A stretch of 32,000 bases of DNA from Candidatus Helarchaeota ASGARD archaeon Hel_GB_B (GTDB lineage Archaea; Asgardarchaeota; Lokiarchaeia; Helarchaeales; HEL-GB-B), in contig SUPR01000030.1 of the NCBI GenBank assembly GCA_005191425.1, positions 1-32,000 on the forward strand, written 5' to 3'. The translations under genes were made by a program, and so were the position numbers. Positions 16,194 through 27,462 of this stretch are shown one piece after another; the first letter of the stretch is position 1; each line of letters starts with the position of its first letter. Under the pieces are notes generated by a model that had not been told where the DNA came from, did not search any database, and saw only the letters and a program-made list of their open reading frames with translations.

Positions 16194-16286
16194 GATATGA
16201 TGAATGAAATCAACTTATGATTTTGCTCCCACATATTATTTAGATAATATTTACTTTTTAATTGTGTGTCTCTAAAATACAATAAT

Positions 16287-16997
16287 ATGAACGAAAACAC
16301 TCTTTTTGATGTACGAAGCCTTTATATTTTAAAGGACGGAGTGCCAGTTTTTCATTGGCATTATATTAATGACAAAGAATTGAATATAGAAAAAGAAGAG
16401 AAAGATTCGGTTTTAATTTCTGGCTTTTTAAGTGCAATTGTAGTATTTGCAAATGAAATAGGGATCGGAGAGCCCAAGAGTTATTTGACAGATGACATCA
16501 AATTTTCCTTTTTGAATAAAAATGGTTTTCTATTTGTAATTTCTATTGAAAAGGACATCCCTGACGAACAAGCCTATGATTTTTTGAATATAGTTTCCAA
16601 GACATTTATCAAATTATATGATGTAGGTGATTTTCATAACTTACAAGCGATAAATTTCGATGAATTTAAAGAATATTTATTTGAAATAATAAAGAAATTC
16701 AATATAAAAAATATAACAAATGAAAAAATAAATGAGGATGAGATTATAAAAGAAATCCCAAATAAGAGCAATATATATAAAAATTTAATTCCAAAATGCT
16801 ATATTGATTTAGAAAGAAATAAACACTTTTCTAGTTTAAGGCGTACTTTATTTAAATTAATTGATGGGAATATTTCGATATATAATATTGCCCAGAAAAT
16901 GAACTATAACCCACAGGACATTTATTATACACTACGGTCATATGAAAAATTTGGATATATTCAGATCAAAAAAATTGATAATAATGAAGAATCCTAA
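16287..16997 (+). CDS. Longin-domain protein with a C-terminal winged-helix domain
   Basis: SLYILKDGVPVF, LISGFLSAIVVFANEIG, FSFL..NGFLFVI (Asgard longin pattern); C-terminal LFKLIDGNISIYNIAQKMNY..QDIYYTLRSYEKFGYI. The ORF track starts at 16266. Confidence 0.72.
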   Translation: MNENTLFDVRSLYILKDGVPVFHWHYINDKELNIEKEEKDSVLISGFLSAIVVFANEIGIGEPKSYLTDDIKFSFLNKNGFLFVISIEKDIPDEQAYDFLNIVSKTFIKLYDVGDFHNLQAINFDEFKEYLFEIIKKFNIKNITNEKINEDEIIKEIPNKSNIYKNLIPKCYIDLERNKHFSSLRRTLFKLIDGNISIYNIAQKMNYNPQDIYYTLRSYEKFGYIQIKKIDNNEES

Positions 16998-17139
16998 AGA
17001 AAAAGGGCATAAAAATGTAAATAAATAAGGAAAAAAAGTACGAACAAAAAACAAATTTTTTAAAAAATAAACCAAGGTTTTAAGATAAAAGATAGTTTTA
17101 GATGGTATAAAAAAGGTAAACTAGAAATCAAGGGGAGTC

Positions 17140-17334
17140 GAGAAAATATATTTATGCAGAAGCGATAAGGCTCTTCCGTGTTCGGGATGGGTAACGGGTG
17201 TTTCCCTTCACCTATGATCGTGATTAAAGTCACAACCATCCTAAGTTCCCATACACTCTCGTAGTATAGTACAGTTAGGACCGCGTGAAGGCTTAATTCG
17301 GCGTCTTATTACTTCTTTTGCATTATATTTCCTC
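17140..17334 (-). other. RNA processing stem enclosing the 5S gene, with one canonical and one relaxed BHB motif
   Basis: Leader and trailer pair as GAGGAAAUAUA/UAUAUUUUCUC, AUGC/GCAU with AAA bulges on opposite strands, AGAAG/CUUCU and AUAAG/CUUAU. Confidence 0.85.
17173..17296 (-). rRNA. rrf: 5S rRNA gene, circularly permuted (3' half 17296-17230, linker CUUUAA, 5' half 17223-17173)
   Basis: Rejoining the halves gives a 118-nt canonical archaeal 5S: UCACGAUCAUAGGUGAAGGGAAACACCCGUUACCCAUCCCGAACACGGAAG+UUAAGCCUUCACGCGGUCCUAACUGUACUAUACUACGAGAGUGUAUGGGAACUUAGGAUGGUUGUGA. Helices I, II, III and the loop E arm all pair, and the conserved CCGAAC loop C is present. Confidence 0.92.
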
Positions 17335-17864
17335 AAACAGGAAATAAAACGATTTTAAAGGTGTATAGCTTAAATTTTAAGTTATAAATTAAATTAAGAT
17401 TATAAATTACCATAAATAATGAAATTTAAAGTTTTTCTATATAAAAATGAATTATGCAAATTTCAAGTGAAAATTAAATTTTTATGATCAAATGTACATT
17501 TTTAAGACAAATAAAATAAAAAAAATAAATGGTAAAAGAAATTAATTGGAAAAATATATTAATTTTAGAAGTATTAATAAAAATAATTAATGGGATTTGG
17601 AAAACTCCATAAATAAAAATAAATTAAGATTATTCGGGGTTAAAGAATTTTTAAAAGATAGATAAAGGCTATAAATATTAGGAAGTTTCAATAGAAATTG
17701 GAAAATAATTAGATAAAATTTAAATTTCACCAAAAAATATTAATGAATAAAAAAGTAAAAAAATTTAAATAAAATAGATTATATGAAAAAAAGAATTAAT
17801 TTTTAAAAACTTATGAAATAAATACTAAAAATCAATTGGTTAAAATAATTGGAGTAAAGTAATA

Positions 17865-20717: not shown

Positions 20718-23700
20718 CTAATCTTCAATAATTTTGTAATAACCTTCTTTTGGTTGATAAAGTACGCCATGCATTCTAAGAGTATTTAATTCTGATTCGA
20801 CTTGTTCTTCCGAAATTCTAAGCCTACTGGCAGCTTCTTTAATCTCTTCAATCGAAACAGCTTGACCACCTTTTCTTTCTGTTAATTCTCGAATTAATTG
20901 ATTAATTTGGTCTAAACGTCTTCTATGAGTAGTAGTGATACCCGTTTCTATTGCATCGATATCTGAGACACCAGTCTCCTGGTCAATCCCAACCTGTCCT
21001 AAAGAATAAGTCATTAATTGGATCACTGATTGAGCATCTTCAGCAGTTACTTCTTCATGTAATAAAACTTTAGCTCTTGCTTCAGCAAGTCGTATTAATG
21101 CCTCTAAATATCGAGCTGTAATCGGAATTGGTGTCTCTGGATCTGCGCCCGCAATTCGAGTTTGTAAATAAAACTGTTTAATTACTTCTATTGCTTCTTT
21201 GGTTATTCGAGGTTTACAATTTTTCTTAGCATAATAGATATAATTTTTTAAAAGTTCATGATCAATTGGTGGTTCTTGGGGTGTTTCTTCAGAACTTAAT
21301 ATAAAATTTGCCATTCGTTCATCATTTGTAGGACTTGGTTGGTCCCTAATTAAAAATATTAAATCAAATCTCGATAAAATAGTCGGCGGTAATTTCTTAA
21401 TATTCTCCGCAACTGTTTTATATGGGTCATATCTACCTTGAAATGGGTTGGCTGCAGCTAGAATTGACGTCCTTGAATTTAACGTAGCTATTATTCCTGC
21501 TTTTGCTATACTGACCGTATTGTGCAATATGACACCGTGGCTAACAAAATTATGATTTGGTTCAATAGTTATATCATATACCCAAGGAGTAAAATATTCT
21601 TCTTCATTTTTAATTTTCTGAATATCAACAATTTTCAGAAATTTTATGTCTGATTTTATTAACTTTTGGACTGACTTTACTGAACCAATGGTTTTTTCGA
21701 TTTTTTTAATTAAAATATCGATGTTGTCCTTATTTAAACAATTGTCATTATTTTGGTTAATATTCTCAATTAATTCCGAATTTGGGATTAAGTTATTAAC
21801 TATTAATGAAATTTCTGGTTTCAAATTTAAATATGAACTGGATGAATAAGGTGTATTCAAAAGTTTTTTGAGTTTTTGCTGGATTTTGTAGAGTTTATTA
21901 ACTGCCTCGTTTAATAATTTTAGAGCTAGCTCTTTTGTCATTTTAGGCTTGTTTATACCAGTAAATTTAGATAGTGTAGATGAATTTGAACAGATTTTTT
22001 CAGTAATTTTTGTGATTAAATTTTCAATAGGGACGGGAATTGTATCATATTTAAATTGGTCATAGAAAATATCTTTTAAAGCTGGAGTTTGAGGCTCTTT
22101 CTGGTCGAACTGAAGAAATATTTCCTGGACAAATTTTTGAAGTGAGCATGGCGATATAAACAGTTTATGTCTTCTGTTCTCAAATTTGATATAGCTTGAA
22201 ATACCTAATTTTAATAATAAATCTTGCAAATCTTCGCAAATTACTTTTTTCTGACACACAAAGTATATTTTTTGCTCAAAAATTTCTCCAATAGTCCTAA
22301 AAGTAGCGGTTAAAAAAGATTTGGCTATTTCTTTACTTGCACCCAGTATTTTTGATGGGACACGTTTATTATTATTATCCATTAATTCAGGAAAATTTAT
22401 TTTGAACCAGTAATAGAGGTCATAAGAGTCATAATAGACTACTGTATAGTCAATCAGATTTAATTTCTGAATTGGTATTATTCCAAATAAATCATTTAAA
22501 AGCCGGGCGACCTCATTTATTATATTTTTAGATAAATTTGAAAACTGAATTTGAGTTGAAATATCTGAATTTAAATTACCAGAAGTGAAAAAATGTCCAA
22601 CAAGTTCAGCTACCTCTAATGTTAGGAGATTTGGCTCTTTTTTTACCTGTAATTTAGTTATAAAATTATGGTCTAACGCAATTGGTTTCGTAGAATTAGG
22701 TAAATAACGAGGGGCTGGTATATAATCACCTATTGAGCAATTTTCTGCTTTAACACAGTCTATATTGAGTCCATTTAATTTAAATACAGGGTGTTCTGGA
22801 GTAACAATTATTGACCTACCATTTGAAAATTCTATCTTGTAAAAATTGCTTGGAGCTATATGTCGGCTTAATCTATTTATCCTACTTTTATAAATTTGTT
22901 CAAAATCTGTAGTATATAGTCCTATATCTTGAAATGGAAGTATTTCACAATTAATACCTTTGACCACTTCTTTTGGACGCGATTCAATTGCGTCATCAAT
23001 GAATTCGCCAATTTTAATTTTTCTTCCGTCAATAAGTAAAATTTCAGTATTTGGGTGGAAACATAGTTGTTCCATGGACTCATGAATAGAAATACGATCT
23101 TCGGGCCTCATTTTATCAAATTCATCAATGGCAGCCAGACCTTGATCTGCTAATACGAGTACTCCTGCTTCAAGTGAGAGATTTCCTGTATCTTTATCTC
23201 TTAATACGCTCGCGGTTAAGCCAGCCGCACTTGTACCTTTACCACTTGTATATATCCCTCTTGGTGCTATTAATGCTGCACTTTTTAGGATTTGACTATT
23301 ATGGAAAATTACATGACCATTGGCAAGGATAAAATGGTTATTCTCAGTCCCTATATCATATACATATTCAAACTCATTTTCTAATTTAGTTATTGAAATA
23401 ATTTTGTCCCAAAAAACATTTTTGTTTATTGAAGTTCCTAAAATCTTGGCATCTTGATACTTTTTATTTAAGTTATGAGTACATCTCTTTAAAGCCAGGA
23501 TTGTTCCTAGACATTCGGATAATACTTTTTGATTATTAAAATCAAGTAATTTAGGTTGAATAAATCTTTGAGGGATGGTACCTAAAGAAATACCCGTTCT
23601 ATTTATTTCCGTGTCTAATAGATTAAGCTTATTATAAGAATAGACATGGTGTTCCCGCTTTACTCTCAAATATAAATTTTTTTGTTCTTTATTATTTATA

Positions 23701-25760
23701 AAATAACATAATTTAAAAAATTTGACCAAGTCGCTTTTTAATATTAATAATTTATAGTCAATAACATTATTTCTTTTATGTGATTTTGTACTGACTTTAA
23801 TAATACTCTGTATTCCAAGTAAATTTAATAAATCTCTTAAATTTAACAATAATCTTTTTGATTTTGATCGGATTCCAAGTACATTTCTCTTGTTTATTTT
23901 ACTTTTTCCTGAGAAATAACCTGAAATAAATCCCTGTAAGAAGGGTCTAGGTGCATAGAAAAAGAGTTCTGGAACGCTTTTAACACCATTAAAATAAAAA
24001 AGTTTCTTGAATACCTCCCTAATAACAACGGAACGATATTTTATAATGTTTTTGTACGTAGTATAACTTTTGAAATTTAGTTTAAAATCTTTTTCTAATT
24101 GTATTTTAATATCTTCATCGAAATATGATATGCTTATGCCATCCTTTTCTATCCGGCCATTTGCTAAAAATAATCCAAAAATTCTGCCCAGTGATTCAGT
24201 TAAACATAATTTGTCCAAGTCAATATTTTTTTGATTTCCTCTTAAAGTCCTATTTTTTTTATAATTAATTAAATTTTCAAGCTGATTTGTTCTTTTATTT
24301 AAGAGATCGGAAATTTCAATTAATTTGACTTCTTTAAAGGAGTCAATTTTCCTTGATATTGGTAAATAATCACCTAATTCAAGGTCAGACATATTTCTTA
24401 ATATTAACTTACCATTTTTTAAAGTAGTAAATGAATGGTTACCTGTCGCCTTAATTATAATACCTGATTGAAGTTTAATTTCATAAATTTCTAAACTTTT
24501 ATGTCTGCTTACTTCTAATATCTTGGAAATTTCTGGTCTAAAATAATCAAAATTAAATGATTGAGTATAAAAATCTTCTAGTCCTTTTAAGTCTAAAATT
24601 TCAGTGTCTTTATATTTAATTATTCGATTTTTATATTTACTTAATAAAGTGTCAACAAAATTACCGATTTTGTATTTTATTTTCCAATCATCAAGGGAAT
24701 TATTATAGAGGTAAATTTCTTCATTATAATGGACACTCTTACCAACTCCTGGATCGCCTACTAAAAGGACATGGATTTGACCTCTTCTTGTGGTGCCATC
24801 TTTTCTCAACCTAGATACACCCGAAAAAAGTTGTAATAAAACTGCCTCCTTAATTTCTTCAAGTCCATAAATTGAAGGTGCCACTGATTTAATTAATTTA
24901 CGGTATACCCACGGGTCATTTGCTAGTTGTTTTATTTCTTCTTCTTGTTCCGCCGTAATCTGTAAATTTTCTATTTCAACTTCTTGTTTCTCGATGTGAT
25001 TGATATCTATAAAGGTTTTAAAAATAGTTAATTTTCCTTGTTGAGATGATTCTTGCTTCGCTTTCAAAATTCCAACGATATTAACTCTATCGCCTGGCCT
25101 TGCTAAATCGACAATATCTTCTAATAAATAACCGTCCATAAATCTGGGCATTTGTCCAGGAGGTAGTTCTTCAGGTTTTTCTTGAACCCGGATTTTCTGC
25201 CAATCAATGTATGTAGATCGTTCTAATAACAATTTAAATGGGCCCTTTTTATTACATTGTGGACAAATTAATGGTTTTGTAAATTCATTATCTTCTTGGT
25301 CAACAGGAATTATTGCTTCATTACAACTTAAACACTTGAATACCCCTCGTATCATTAATGGGACTACTTTATTAACTCTTGTTAAAATACCACTTATTTG
25401 GATCAATTTGCCGATGTGATTTGCCCTAATTTTTCGCAGATTAATTCTATTGGTAGGTTCAAGATTTCTAAACCTAGCATGAAATTTGTCTACCTGGTAC
25501 GCATATTCTTCGCTAATTATTCTCAATCTGTGCTTTATCGCAAGTGATGCCATTTCAATATAAAATTCAGGAGATTCTAACAACTTTCTTGCCAATTCCG
25601 AATCAAATCTCAATAAATCATCATAATCAATTGTAAGCGAGATACTTGCACTTAATTCCATTTGTCCTATCATATCATCATATTTTCTAGAACCATTTTC
25701 ATCTATATAATCGCTAAAAAATGTTTCAAATCTGGCTACAATATCGGCAGAATCTTCCAT
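20718..25760 (-). CDS. mcm: MCM replicative helicase precursor with two inteins (685 aa after splicing)
   Basis: Zn finger CLSC..CPQC, Walker A GDPGVGK/SQ, Walker B IDEFDKM, AAANP, arginine finger LSRFDL, C-terminal winged helix; SD-like GAGGT at 25769-25773. Confidence 0.97.
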   Translation of the reverse strand: MEDSADIVARFETFFSDYIDENGSRKYDDMIGQMELSASISLTIDYDDLLRFDSELARKLLESPEFYIEMASLAIKHRLRIISEEYAYQVDKFHARFRNLEPTNRINLRKIRANHIGKLIQISGILTRVNKVVPLMIRGVFKCLSCNEAIIPVDQEDNEFTKPLICPQCNKKGPFKLLLERSTYIDWQKIRVQEKPEELPPGQMPRFMDGYLLEDIVDLARPGDRVNIVGILKAKQESSQQGKLTIFKTFIDINHIEKQEVEIENLQITAEQEEEIKQLANDPWVYRKLIKSVAPSIYGLEEIKEAVLLQLFSGVSRLRKDGTTRRGQIHVLLVGDPGVGKSVHYNEEIYLYNNSLDDWKIKYKIGNFVDTLLSKYKNRIIKYKDTEILDLKGLEDFYTQSFNFDYFRPEISKILEVSRHKSLEIYEIKLQSGIIIKATGNHSFTTLKNGKLILRNMSDLELGDYLPISRKIDSFKEVKLIEISDLLNKRTNQLENLINYKKNRTLRGNQKNIDLDKLCLTESLGRIFGLFLANGRIEKDGISISYFDEDIKIQLEKDFKLNFKSYTTYKNIIKYRSVVIREVFKKLFYFNGVKSVPELFFYAPRPFLQGFISGYFSGKSKINKRNVLGIRSKSKRLLLNLRDLLNLLGIQSIIKVSTKSHKRNNVIDYKLLILKSDLVKFFKLCYFINNKEQKNLYLRVKREHHVYSYNKLNLLDTEINRTGISLGTIPQRFIQPKLLDFNNQKVLSECLGTILALKRCTHNLNKKYQDAKILGTSINKNVFWDKIISITKLENEFEYVYDIGTENNHFILANGHVIFHNSQILKSAALIAPRGIYTSGKGTSAAGLTASVLRDKDTGNLSLEAGVLVLADQGLAAIDEFDKMRPEDRISIHESMEQLCFHPNTEILLIDGRKIKIGEFIDDAIESRPKEVVKGINCEILPFQDIGLYTTDFEQIYKSRINRLSRHIAPSNFYKIEFSNGRSIIVTPEHPVFKLNGLNIDCVKAENCSIGDYIPAPRYLPNSTKPIALDHNFITKLQVKKEPNLLTLEVAELVGHFFTSGNLNSDISTQIQFSNLSKNIINEVARLLNDLFGIIPIQKLNLIDYTVVYYDSYDLYYWFKINFPELMDNNNKRVPSKILGASKEIAKSFLTATFRTIGEIFEQKIYFVCQKKVICEDLQDLLLKLGISSYIKFENRRHKLFISPCSLQKFVQEIFLQFDQKEPQTPALKDIFYDQFKYDTIPVPIENLITKITEKICSNSSTLSKFTGINKPKMTKELALKLLNEAVNKLYKIQQKLKKLLNTPYSSSSYLNLKPEISLIVNNLIPNSELIENINQNNDNCLNKDNIDILIKKIEKTIGSVKSVQKLIKSDIKFLKIVDIQKIKNEEEYFTPWVYDITIEPNHNFVSHGVILHNTVSIAKAGIIATLNSRTSILAAANPFQGRYDPYKTVAENIKKLPPTILSRFDLIFLIRDQPSPTNDERMANFILSSEETPQEPPIDHELLKNYIYYAKKNCKPRITKEAIEVIKQFYLQTRIAGADPETPIPITARYLEALIRLAEARAKVLLHEEVTAEDAQSVIQLMTYSLGQVGIDQETGVSDIDAIETGITTTHRRRLDQINQLIRELTERKGGQAVSIEEIKEAASRLRISEEQVESELNTLRMHGVLYQPKEGYYKIIED
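21519..23063 (-). mobile_element. MCM intein 2 (515 aa) with a degenerate LAGLIDADG homing endonuclease
   Basis: Begins CFHPNTE after MEQL and ends VYDITIEPNHNFVSHGVILHN before TVSIAKAG; block B TPEHPVF. Confidence 0.93.
23298..24737 (-). mobile_element. MCM intein 1 (480 aa, Ser-initiated) in the Walker A motif, with a degenerate LAGLIDADG homing endonuclease
   Basis: Begins SVHYNEE after GDPGVGK and ends VYDIGTENNHFILANGHVIFHN before SQIL; block B TGNHSF. Confidence 0.93.
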
Positions 25761-26857: not shown

Positions 26858-27462
26858 TTCCTCATTTAAATTAATTTCTAATTTAAATTTGTTTTAAAAT
26901 ATAGCATTAAAAAATTGTTTCCAATATTTTTCACTAGCAGATTATATAAAAATCTTTCTTCAAATATTTAGCCATTTTAGATGAAATGTATATTTTATGG
27001 GCATAAATATCCATATAATTCTTCAAGTTATGCATGTTATATTCCGTCAAATTTCTAATATGAATTTGAAAATCATATATTATTCTTTTTTTTACTCAAA
27101 CTTAAATTCTTTTTGGAGATTTTTAATTTTGCTTAATTATCGGGTTTTCTCCAATATTTTCAGAATAATTAGATGAATAGAGTAAAATGCTTTTATTTTT
27201 AAATTTTTTGTTTAAAAAATGATTTACTCTTACAAAATTTAATATATTTAATTGACAATAAATTATCAATAATTTAAGGAATAATTTCTTATAATTTTAA
27301 TGGAAATTTTTAGATAAAAATTTAGAGTTAATAATAATTTCTTTTTTATTACTCAATTTTTATTTGGGATTTACAAAACAATTATTTTATAAAACCTATA
27401 AACTAATCCGGGGATTTTTATTGAACCTTCAAAACCCGCCTAATTGATTGATCTTTTAACAA

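Follow-up and report, generated by a model that had tools for sequence, protein, structure and literature searches.

A permuted 5S rRNA gene and the inner bulge-helix-bulge

The window, by which we mean the whole 32,000-nucleotide stretch of Helarchaeales DNA analysed here, carries a stand-alone 5S rRNA gene that lies antisense between two protein genes, one with a Longin domain and the other encoding a DUF1512 protein. The genes of the window include Longin, Roadblock/LC7 and Vps22/36-like members. No 16S, 23S, Rfam-passing rRNA or tRNA was found within the 32 kb, and the 5S gene is not part of a 16S-23S(-5S) operon. The 16S and 23S genes, which were sought as in-genome controls for bulge-helix-bulge (BHB) motifs, are absent from the assembly.

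Read on the minus strand between 17345 and 17130, the gene consists of a leader, the 3' part of the 5S, a 10-bp helix I capped by CUUUAA, the 5' part of the 5S and a trailer. At a permissive threshold the RF00001 model matched the two halves in swapped order, the 3' part at 17316-17227 (19.9 bits) and the 5' part at 17225-17125 (24 bits). Because the gene order is permuted, neither half reaches the RF00001 cut-off of 38 bits, and the window is without a 5S at the Rfam gathering score. These two half matches are the only 5S-like hits in the 3.54-Mb, 93.7%-complete genome, and no canonical 5S was found in it. When circularised in silico, the sequence aligns colinearly and over its full length with canonical Asgard 5S rRNAs. 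The first-pass annotation had described a BHB stem that encloses a 5S gene; leader and trailer do surround one, and that gene is circularly permuted. The elements of the locus are listed here from upstream to downstream.

17352-17359, minus strand: TATA-like box TTTAAAAT, a candidate promoter about 20-25 nt upstream of the outer helix
17324-17336, minus strand: outer helix, leader (5') strand, 13 nt, partner of 17150-17138 (the 11 bp described earlier correspond to 17324-17334)
17320-17323, minus strand: central 4-bp helix of the outer BHB, 5' strand AUGC, paired with GCAU
17317-17319, minus strand: outer BHB, 3-nt bulge AAA of the 5' strand, unpaired in the fold, predicted cut 17318/17317
17303-17316, minus strand: spacer helix between the two BHBs, 5' strand, 14 nt, paired with 17158-17171
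17299-17302, minus strand: central helix of the inner BHB, 5' strand GCCG, paired with CGGA, with a G.A pair at one end
17296-17298, minus strand: inner BHB, bulge AAU of the 5' strand, predicted cut 17297/17296, which would make U17296 the first 5S nucleotide past the junction
17173-17296, minus strand: circularly permuted 5S rRNA, 124 nt (3' part 17296-17230, CUUUAA cap 17229-17224, 5' part 17223-17173)
17175-17178, minus strand: central helix of the inner BHB, 3' strand CGGA, part of 5S helix III and in competition with the native helix III
17172-17174, minus strand: inner BHB, bulge AGA of the 3' strand, predicted cut 17173/17172, which would leave ...CACGGAAG as the 5S end
17158-17171, minus strand: spacer helix, trailer (3') strand, paired with 17316-17303
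17154-17157, minus strand: central helix of the outer BHB, 3' strand GCAU, paired with AUGC
17151-17153, minus strand: outer BHB, 3-nt bulge AAA of the 3' strand, unpaired with a probability of at least 0.99, predicted cut 17152/17151
17138-17150, minus strand: outer helix, trailer (3') strand, partner of 17336-17324
17109-17114, minus strand: T6 run, a candidate archaeal terminator about 25 nt past the stem

The putative promoter and terminator were both read from the sequence, and the assignment of the TATA-like box is weak because the region is AT-rich. A scan with a bacterial-type promoter and terminator model gave nothing useful, such a model not being applicable to archaea. If transcription started within 17324-17336, the outer helix would be shorter than drawn.

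The inner BHB sits 21 nt inside the outer BHB on each strand. Candidate motifs were enumerated under a rule that asked for 4 central bp and 3-nt bulges and placed each cut behind bulge nucleotide 2, and each enumerated product was circularised in silico and scored against an HMM of canonical 5S built from the one family of the class that has normal 5S genes. In the window the circular product of the inner BHB scored 40.1 bits against 30.3 bits for the next candidate, a lead of 10 bits. Joining G17173 to U17296 would give ...CACGGAAG-UUAAGCC..., and the junction GGAAG-UUAAGCC is canonical and aligns to canonical 5S without a gap. Cuts at the outer BHB would leave 42 extra nucleotides in loop B and would not restore a canonical 5S; they would release 166 nt around the 124-nt 5S, that is, a pre-rRNA longer than the mature RNA. 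The predicted ends of the 5S are consequently those of the inner BHB and not those of the outer one. Forcing the inner BHB costs +2.4 kcal/mol, and its pairs have a probability of at most 0.01 in the window. In many lineages with a single BHB the inner-type motif is likewise not the dominant fold (forcing it costs 0-3.5 kcal/mol), so this handicap does not set the window apart.

Geometry, fold and candidate enzymes of the outer motif

The outer motif has the hBHBh' geometry, with two 3-nt bulges on opposite strands, a centre of exactly 4 bp and helices on both sides. The 11-bp core of its outer helix pairs GAGGAAAUAUA (17334-17324) with UAUAUUUUCUC (17150-17140) through a single G-U, and the pairs U17335-G17139 and U17336-A17138 extend it to 13 bp. 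Read inward, the spacer helix comprises AGAAG/CUUCU, a U-G pair, an A.C mismatch, AUAAG/CUUAU, a second A.C mismatch and a C-G pair, which make up its 14 positions. The first-pass annotation had drawn an 11-bp outer helix with one G-U, an AUGC/GCAU central helix (17323-17320 with 17157-17154), AAA bulges on opposite strands (17319-17317 and 17153-17151) and the AGAAG/CUUCU and AUAAG/CUUAU pairings further in, and had read the whole as the canonical substrate geometry of the archaeal splicing endonuclease EndA. Each of these elements is present in the sequence, the central helix and the unpaired bulges recur in the computed fold, and the reading of the geometry is supported.

RNAfold was run on the minus strand from 17345 to 17130, and the outer stem is the minimum-free-energy structure of this region (-64 kcal/mol, z = -3.97 against dinucleotide shuffles). 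Because four A residues stand in a row on the 5' strand (17319-17316), the minimum-free-energy fold picks a 5-bp central helix; the canonical 4-bp register can be imposed at a cost of 0.0 kcal/mol. Ensemble probabilities are 0.93-0.97 for the four central pairs, and the bulges are unpaired.

Both strands were scanned under strict criteria, namely 13 bp or more in the outer helix, 6 bp or more in the inner one and 90-300 nt between the halves. The outer-BHB site was the sole match in the 32-kb window, and a motif of this quality is expected 0.035 times per block-shuffled window. Loose criteria, with minimum lengths of 6 bp for the outer and 4 bp for the inner helix, gave 66 motifs in the window against 32 per shuffle, a count that is uninformative because the DNA has 29% GC, so that only the strict criteria single out the site. 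The second-best BHB-shaped match of the window is on the minus strand at 26904/26719, with 11 bp or more in its outer and 5 bp or more in its inner helix. It was rejected as chance; it lies in A-rich coding sequence and its fold has z = +0.25.

The genome encodes two EndA homologues with PF01974/PF02778 matches (192 and 198 aa) and one RtcB (483 aa). The 192-aa protein carries both Pfam domains and the Tyr/His/Lys motifs, and its best solved relatives, with 3p1z_B at the top alongside 3ajv_B, 2cv8 and 2zyz_B, are catalytic subunits of crenarchaeal heterotetramers. Its sequence marks it as a catalytic subunit of the crenarchaeal type, and in the 198-aa paralogue the His is seemingly missing. 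We infer that the two proteins form a heterotetramer. Among the forms of EndA, the heterotetramer is the least strict in its recognition of BHBs. An enzyme of this type cleaves the BHB of a permuted SRP RNA, which is circular in the cell (Plagens et al. 2015, PMC4731332).

Two motifs in one clade, one motif elsewhere

GTDB holds only one congener of the window genome (G001), and the DUF1512 gene, a syntenic neighbour of the 5S, was therefore traced through public assemblies. This route yielded a 98%-identical strain, present in four assemblies, and two further species whose DUF1512 proteins are 78% and 75% identical. DNA-pattern scans of metagenomes and genomes returned G001-like and G003-like loci only, and at two loci (L122 and L123) no recognisable 5S was found beside the DUF1512 gene. 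Four species keep both BHBs with an invariant 21/21-nt offset. In all four the bulges are 3 nt long on both strands and the central helix of the outer BHB has 4 bp, with the following sequences.

Window: outer central helix AUGC/GCAU, 5'/3' bulges AAA/AAA
G001: outer central helix GUAC/GUAC, 5'/3' bulges AAU/AUA
Species 3: outer central helix UUAC/GUAA, 5'/3' bulges AAA/AUA
Species 4: outer central helix GUGU/GCAC, 5'/3' bulges AAA/AUA

Given five distinct sequences (the four species and the 98% strain), RNAalifold, unprompted, recovered the outer and spacer helices as well as the 4-bp helix with its two bulges, and double changes occur in 17 of the pairs that it predicted. The first central pair of the outer BHB occurs as three types (A-U, G-C and U-A), and the pairs of the outer helix (columns 9-21 with 195-207) show G-U to A-U and double changes among the four species. 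In register, pairing holds in 146 of 155 stem cells; with the 3' partner displaced by 1-3 columns the number drops to 61-89. The outer central helix is paired in all 20 of its 20 alignment cells. The two A.C mismatches in the spacer of the window are A-U or G-U in relatives, and the inner central helix reads UCCG/CGGA in two sister species. Ungapped identity is 0.71-0.77 inside the stem versus 0.20-0.55 outside it; between the two best-compared species the intergenic DNA beyond the outer helix is unalignable, and similarity starts and stops at that helix. Compensatory changes in four species and a homology bounded by the outer helix bear out the earlier claim of selection on the flanks. Because the four species are close kin, this covariation rests on few independent events. 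In the G001 ensemble the outer BHB has a probability of only about 0.22 and lies 1.2 kcal/mol above the minimum, and the fourth species has a 2x2 internal loop in the outer helix, two pairs from the bulge.

The 98% strain (L115-L118) differs from the window at three places in the 215-column alignment of the 5S locus. A change of A17230 to G turns an A-U at the top of helix I into a G-U, a change of G17139 to A turns a U-G of the outer helix into a U-A, with the pair kept in both cases, and the third change lies upstream of the stem. Two observations concern other genes of the window. The Longin-domain gene of G001 (L006, about 502-1244) matches the window gene at 16266-16997 in two blocks, residues 7-138 and 170-237, with about 740 nt of extra DNA between them, which may point to an additional domain, to an insertion or to a gene that has been split. 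A 1680-aa open reading frame lies at 20718-25760 on the minus strand of the window, and in precomputed Pfam hits for the same gene of the 98% strain MCM domains are interrupted by two intein-splicing domains.

Permuted 5S genes with an inner-type BHB extend well beyond this clade. Of the 42 loci resolved in the class, 39 gave a canonical BHB directly under the enumeration rule, usually with a lead of 6-7 bits over the runner-up. For the remaining three, namely the window, G001 and G003, a solution emerged when a single mismatch was tolerated in the adjoining or the central helix. A clear BHB solution was also obtained at 17 loci of other Asgard classes; 23 of the 40 loci in the phylum sample were without a clear single BHB solution under the 5S HMM and were left out. 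The equivalent inner-type BHB is thus found at 57 further Asgard loci (40 in the class and 17 in other classes), most of them with a perfect 4-bp central helix, and the predicted products are 119-131 nt long, or about 150 nt where the 5S has an insertion. The break points vary by lineage, falling in loop B (GGAAG|UU, GGAA|GUU or GGA|AG) or in loop C (CCGGUC|CCAUCC), and the restored sequence is always canonical. Rfam-passing 5S genes were present in 10 of 121 genomes of the class, eight of them in one family and two resembling bacterial contamination, and in 51 of 151 genomes of the phylum sample.

A comparable or strong second, outer BHB was found neither at the other 40 loci of the class nor at the 17 loci of other classes, where none was symmetric. 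Hits to a second BHB in the class numbered 11 of 42 loci, including the two strong ones of genus g1, against 6.8 expected, and the others are weak and at chance level. The other lineages have one BHB and a plain leader-trailer helix of 8-16 bp. In a genome of the sister family (G005) a helix nearly identical to the outermost one of the window (GAGGAAAUAAUAU/AUAUUAUUUUCUC) abuts the single BHB directly, which suggests from the sequences that the clade gained a 21+21-nt module in a pre-existing stem. The earlier expectation of covarying flanks at homologous loci consequently holds for the four species of the clade and not for the 57 other resolved Asgard loci, from which the outer motif is absent.

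Several features of the wider set stand apart from the nested motif. The loop-C break belongs to one genus group (family f4, genus g7; L025, L026, L058 and others), and the break lies in loop B elsewhere (cf. L024, L040 and L054). The loop-B break of Helarchaeales (GGAAG|UU) lies 1 nt away from that of family f4 (GGAA|GUU), and in other classes the break reads GGA|AG (L083, L087 and L091); it seems that the BHB either slides or arises anew between lineages. At three loci (L030, L035 and L064) the product is 150 nt long, and its 3' domain contains an insert of about 30 nt (in L030, GUUACAAC...GUUGUAAG) that could be an expansion hairpin or a further intron. A closed 4.4-Mb genome from the family with canonical 5S genes carries three of them in tandem, spaced by about 375 nt (G054:C1:1399892-1400758). 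The only Rfam-passing 5S genes of family f4 (L013 in G048 and L022 in G072) lie just downstream of a bacterial-looking 23S 3' end, and their contigs are probably contaminants in these MAGs.

Predicted processing of the transcript and its implications

On balance, we regard the 17140-17334 stem as a genuine, selected and canonical BHB, the outer of two nested motifs and most likely a second EndA site, with the inner motif restoring the 5S. In the predicted pathway, EndA would cut the inner bulges after nucleotide 2 and RtcB would join G17173 to U17296 into the 124-nt canonical 5S. Were EndA to cut all four bulges and RtcB to ligate the ends, the products would be the 124-nt 5S, a 21+21-nt hairpin (or a 42-nt circle) and a ligated leader-trailer. 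Should the outer BHB be cut first, RtcB would seal a 166-nt circular pre-5S (17317 to 17152), in which the 42 nt between the BHBs would form a hairpin capped by GCAUAAA, and the inner BHB would then resemble an ordinary tRNA-type intron BHB. An outer cut made second, or together with the inner one, would only trim the leader-trailer duplex. Since either order would yield the same 5S, the outer motif would be accessory, and since the 57 other resolved loci manage with a single BHB, it would be dispensable for the pathway. Taken together, the comparisons suggest that the outer BHB is probably a genuine second EndA site of a clade-specific and accessory kind.

The outer-first order, with its larger circular pre-5S, is compatible with the anatomy. 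It fits because the outer site is thermodynamically favoured and the inner one must displace the native helix III, a handicap that is the same in many single-BHB lineages. We speculate that the outer BHB locks the AU-rich stem as an exonuclease-proof hairpin while the inner site, in competition with the native helix III, forms. Short loops close helix I (in several relatives, UUCG), and the sequence shows no evident signal for opening it again. Because helix I would stay closed by its small loop, a circular product is likely, and the mature 5S may be a covalent circle.

As the pathway does not need the outer BHB, the motif could be structural only. On that account, which we consider improbable but deserving of some weight, it would be a stem extension that clamps leader to trailer and thereby helps the inner BHB to form, with bulges that are tolerated or bind something else and that EndA does not cut. 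The use of one BHB and a plain leader-trailer helix in every other lineage agrees with it, as does the helix of G005 that abuts the inner BHB directly, and the inner BHB is weak enough (a G.A pair, an AU-rich flank and the cost of +2.4 kcal/mol) for an extra stem to be of help. A structural extension has no need, however, for two exact 3-nt bulges on opposite strands and 4 bp apart, kept in four species despite changes in the helix sequence. Bulges would make such a support weaker and not stronger, and the geometry is that of the EndA recognition element, which the cell would use 21 nt away.

A neutral relic, in which a 21+21-nt insertion or the remains of an old processing site or intron are BHB-shaped without function in a young clade, is distinctly less plausible. 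The confinement of the motif to one small clade, the insertion into an existing stem suggested by G005 and the close relatedness of the four species are what such a relic would leave. It accords poorly with the divergence of the flanking intergenic DNA beyond recognition around a stem of preserved identity, with the seven stem pairs that carry double compensatory changes and with the unbroken central helix. Neither of the 21-mers of the module has another copy in the genome (at three mismatches the A-rich one has 3 hits versus 1 for a reversed control), so an origin from a repeat or a mobile element is rejected. The weakest alternative, that swapped halves and stem arose by misassembly of a normal 5S, has the fragmentation of the MAG into 182 contigs in its favour and is scarcely conceivable. 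The first-pass annotation had already argued from the stem against an artefact, and the identical arrangement with the same Longin-domain and DUF1512 neighbours recurs in independent assemblies (two NCBI MAGs, a JGI metagenome and an ENA assembly), in contigs of DNA from three public runs of different studies and in three further species, and the genome lacks a canonical 5S.

Within the reading of the outer motif as a second EndA site, a strictly sequential use of both motifs can be envisaged. EndA and RtcB would act on the outer BHB to give the 166-nt circular pre-5S, the 42-nt hairpin would then be spliced out like a tRNA intron, and the result would be a closed, end-less 124-nt 5S that functions in the ribosome. 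We offer this complete scheme tentatively and think it rather unlikely.

The individual elements of the proposed pathway have counterparts in other systems. Circularly permuted tRNA genes have reportedly been described in Cyanidioschyzon merolae, by Soma et al. in 2007, and in Thermofilum pendens, by Chan et al. in 2011. They resemble the Helarchaeales gene in that the 3' half lies upstream of the 5' half, and the order is restored in a circular intermediate that arises through a BHB at the transcript ends. RNase P and tRNase Z re-open the permuted tRNAs at their natural ends. The 5S differs in that a short loop, which is a UUCG tetraloop in several relatives, caps its helix I, with no evident signal for re-opening.

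The SRP RNA of Thermoproteus tenax and T. uzoniensis (PMC4731332) is likewise a universal structured RNA whose gene has swapped halves and a leader-trailer BHB, and it was reported missing until the permutation was recognised. In Thermoproteus a heterotetramer-type EndA cuts, RtcB is thought to ligate, and the continuity of the natural ends leads to a circle. It has one BHB against the two nested ones here, and it is an SRP RNA of Thermoproteus against a 5S rRNA of Asgard archaea; cleavage and circularity are experimental results in Thermoproteus (PMC4731332) and predictions for the Helarchaeales 5S. The processing stems of archaeal pre-16S and pre-23S rRNA carry BHBs that lead to circular pre-rRNAs (reviewed in PMC8339473; PMC12918454). 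Here again a leader-trailer BHB surrounds an rRNA and EndA and RtcB make a circle larger than the mature RNA, as the outer BHB would, but the Helarchaeales 5S is stand-alone and permuted and has a second BHB inside the first. The permuted mitochondrial 5S rRNAs (Valach et al. 2014, PMC4267664) share the closure of the natural ends and the presence of new ends elsewhere. They differ in being organellar, no BHB, EndA or ligation has been proposed for them, and the molecule stays permuted, whereas the Helarchaeales BHB predicts exact restoration. The permuted 23S rRNA of Pyrococcus furiosus (Birkedal et al. 2020, PMC7758197) is a BHB-circularised rRNA whose topology also differs from its gene order; in Pyrococcus a colinear gene gives a permuted RNA, whereas in Helarchaeales a permuted gene would give a colinear or circular RNA.

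Archaeal 5S rRNA has been stated not to be processed by BHB cleavage and circularisation (PMC12918454). The permuted loci contrast with this view, as they would yield a normal 5S only after cutting and rejoining of the EndA/RtcB type. Full-text searches of the literature found no published description of permuted 5S genes in archaea. Standard rRNA finders miss such genes, which bears on the MAG quality standards that require a 5S gene. Beyond the permuted 5S itself, the novelty of this locus is the nested double BHB on one stem, that is, two EndA-type sites conserved by compensatory change and unseen at the other 57 loci examined. If both sites are used, the locus would represent a natural two-step, twintron-like BHB pathway on a circular intermediate, and it would help to show how EndA selects between two sites, one perfect and one relaxed, that are separated by only 14 bp. 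Should the sequential scheme be true, it would be the first case of a circular 5S rRNA, and also the first in which an intron is taken out of a circular precursor.
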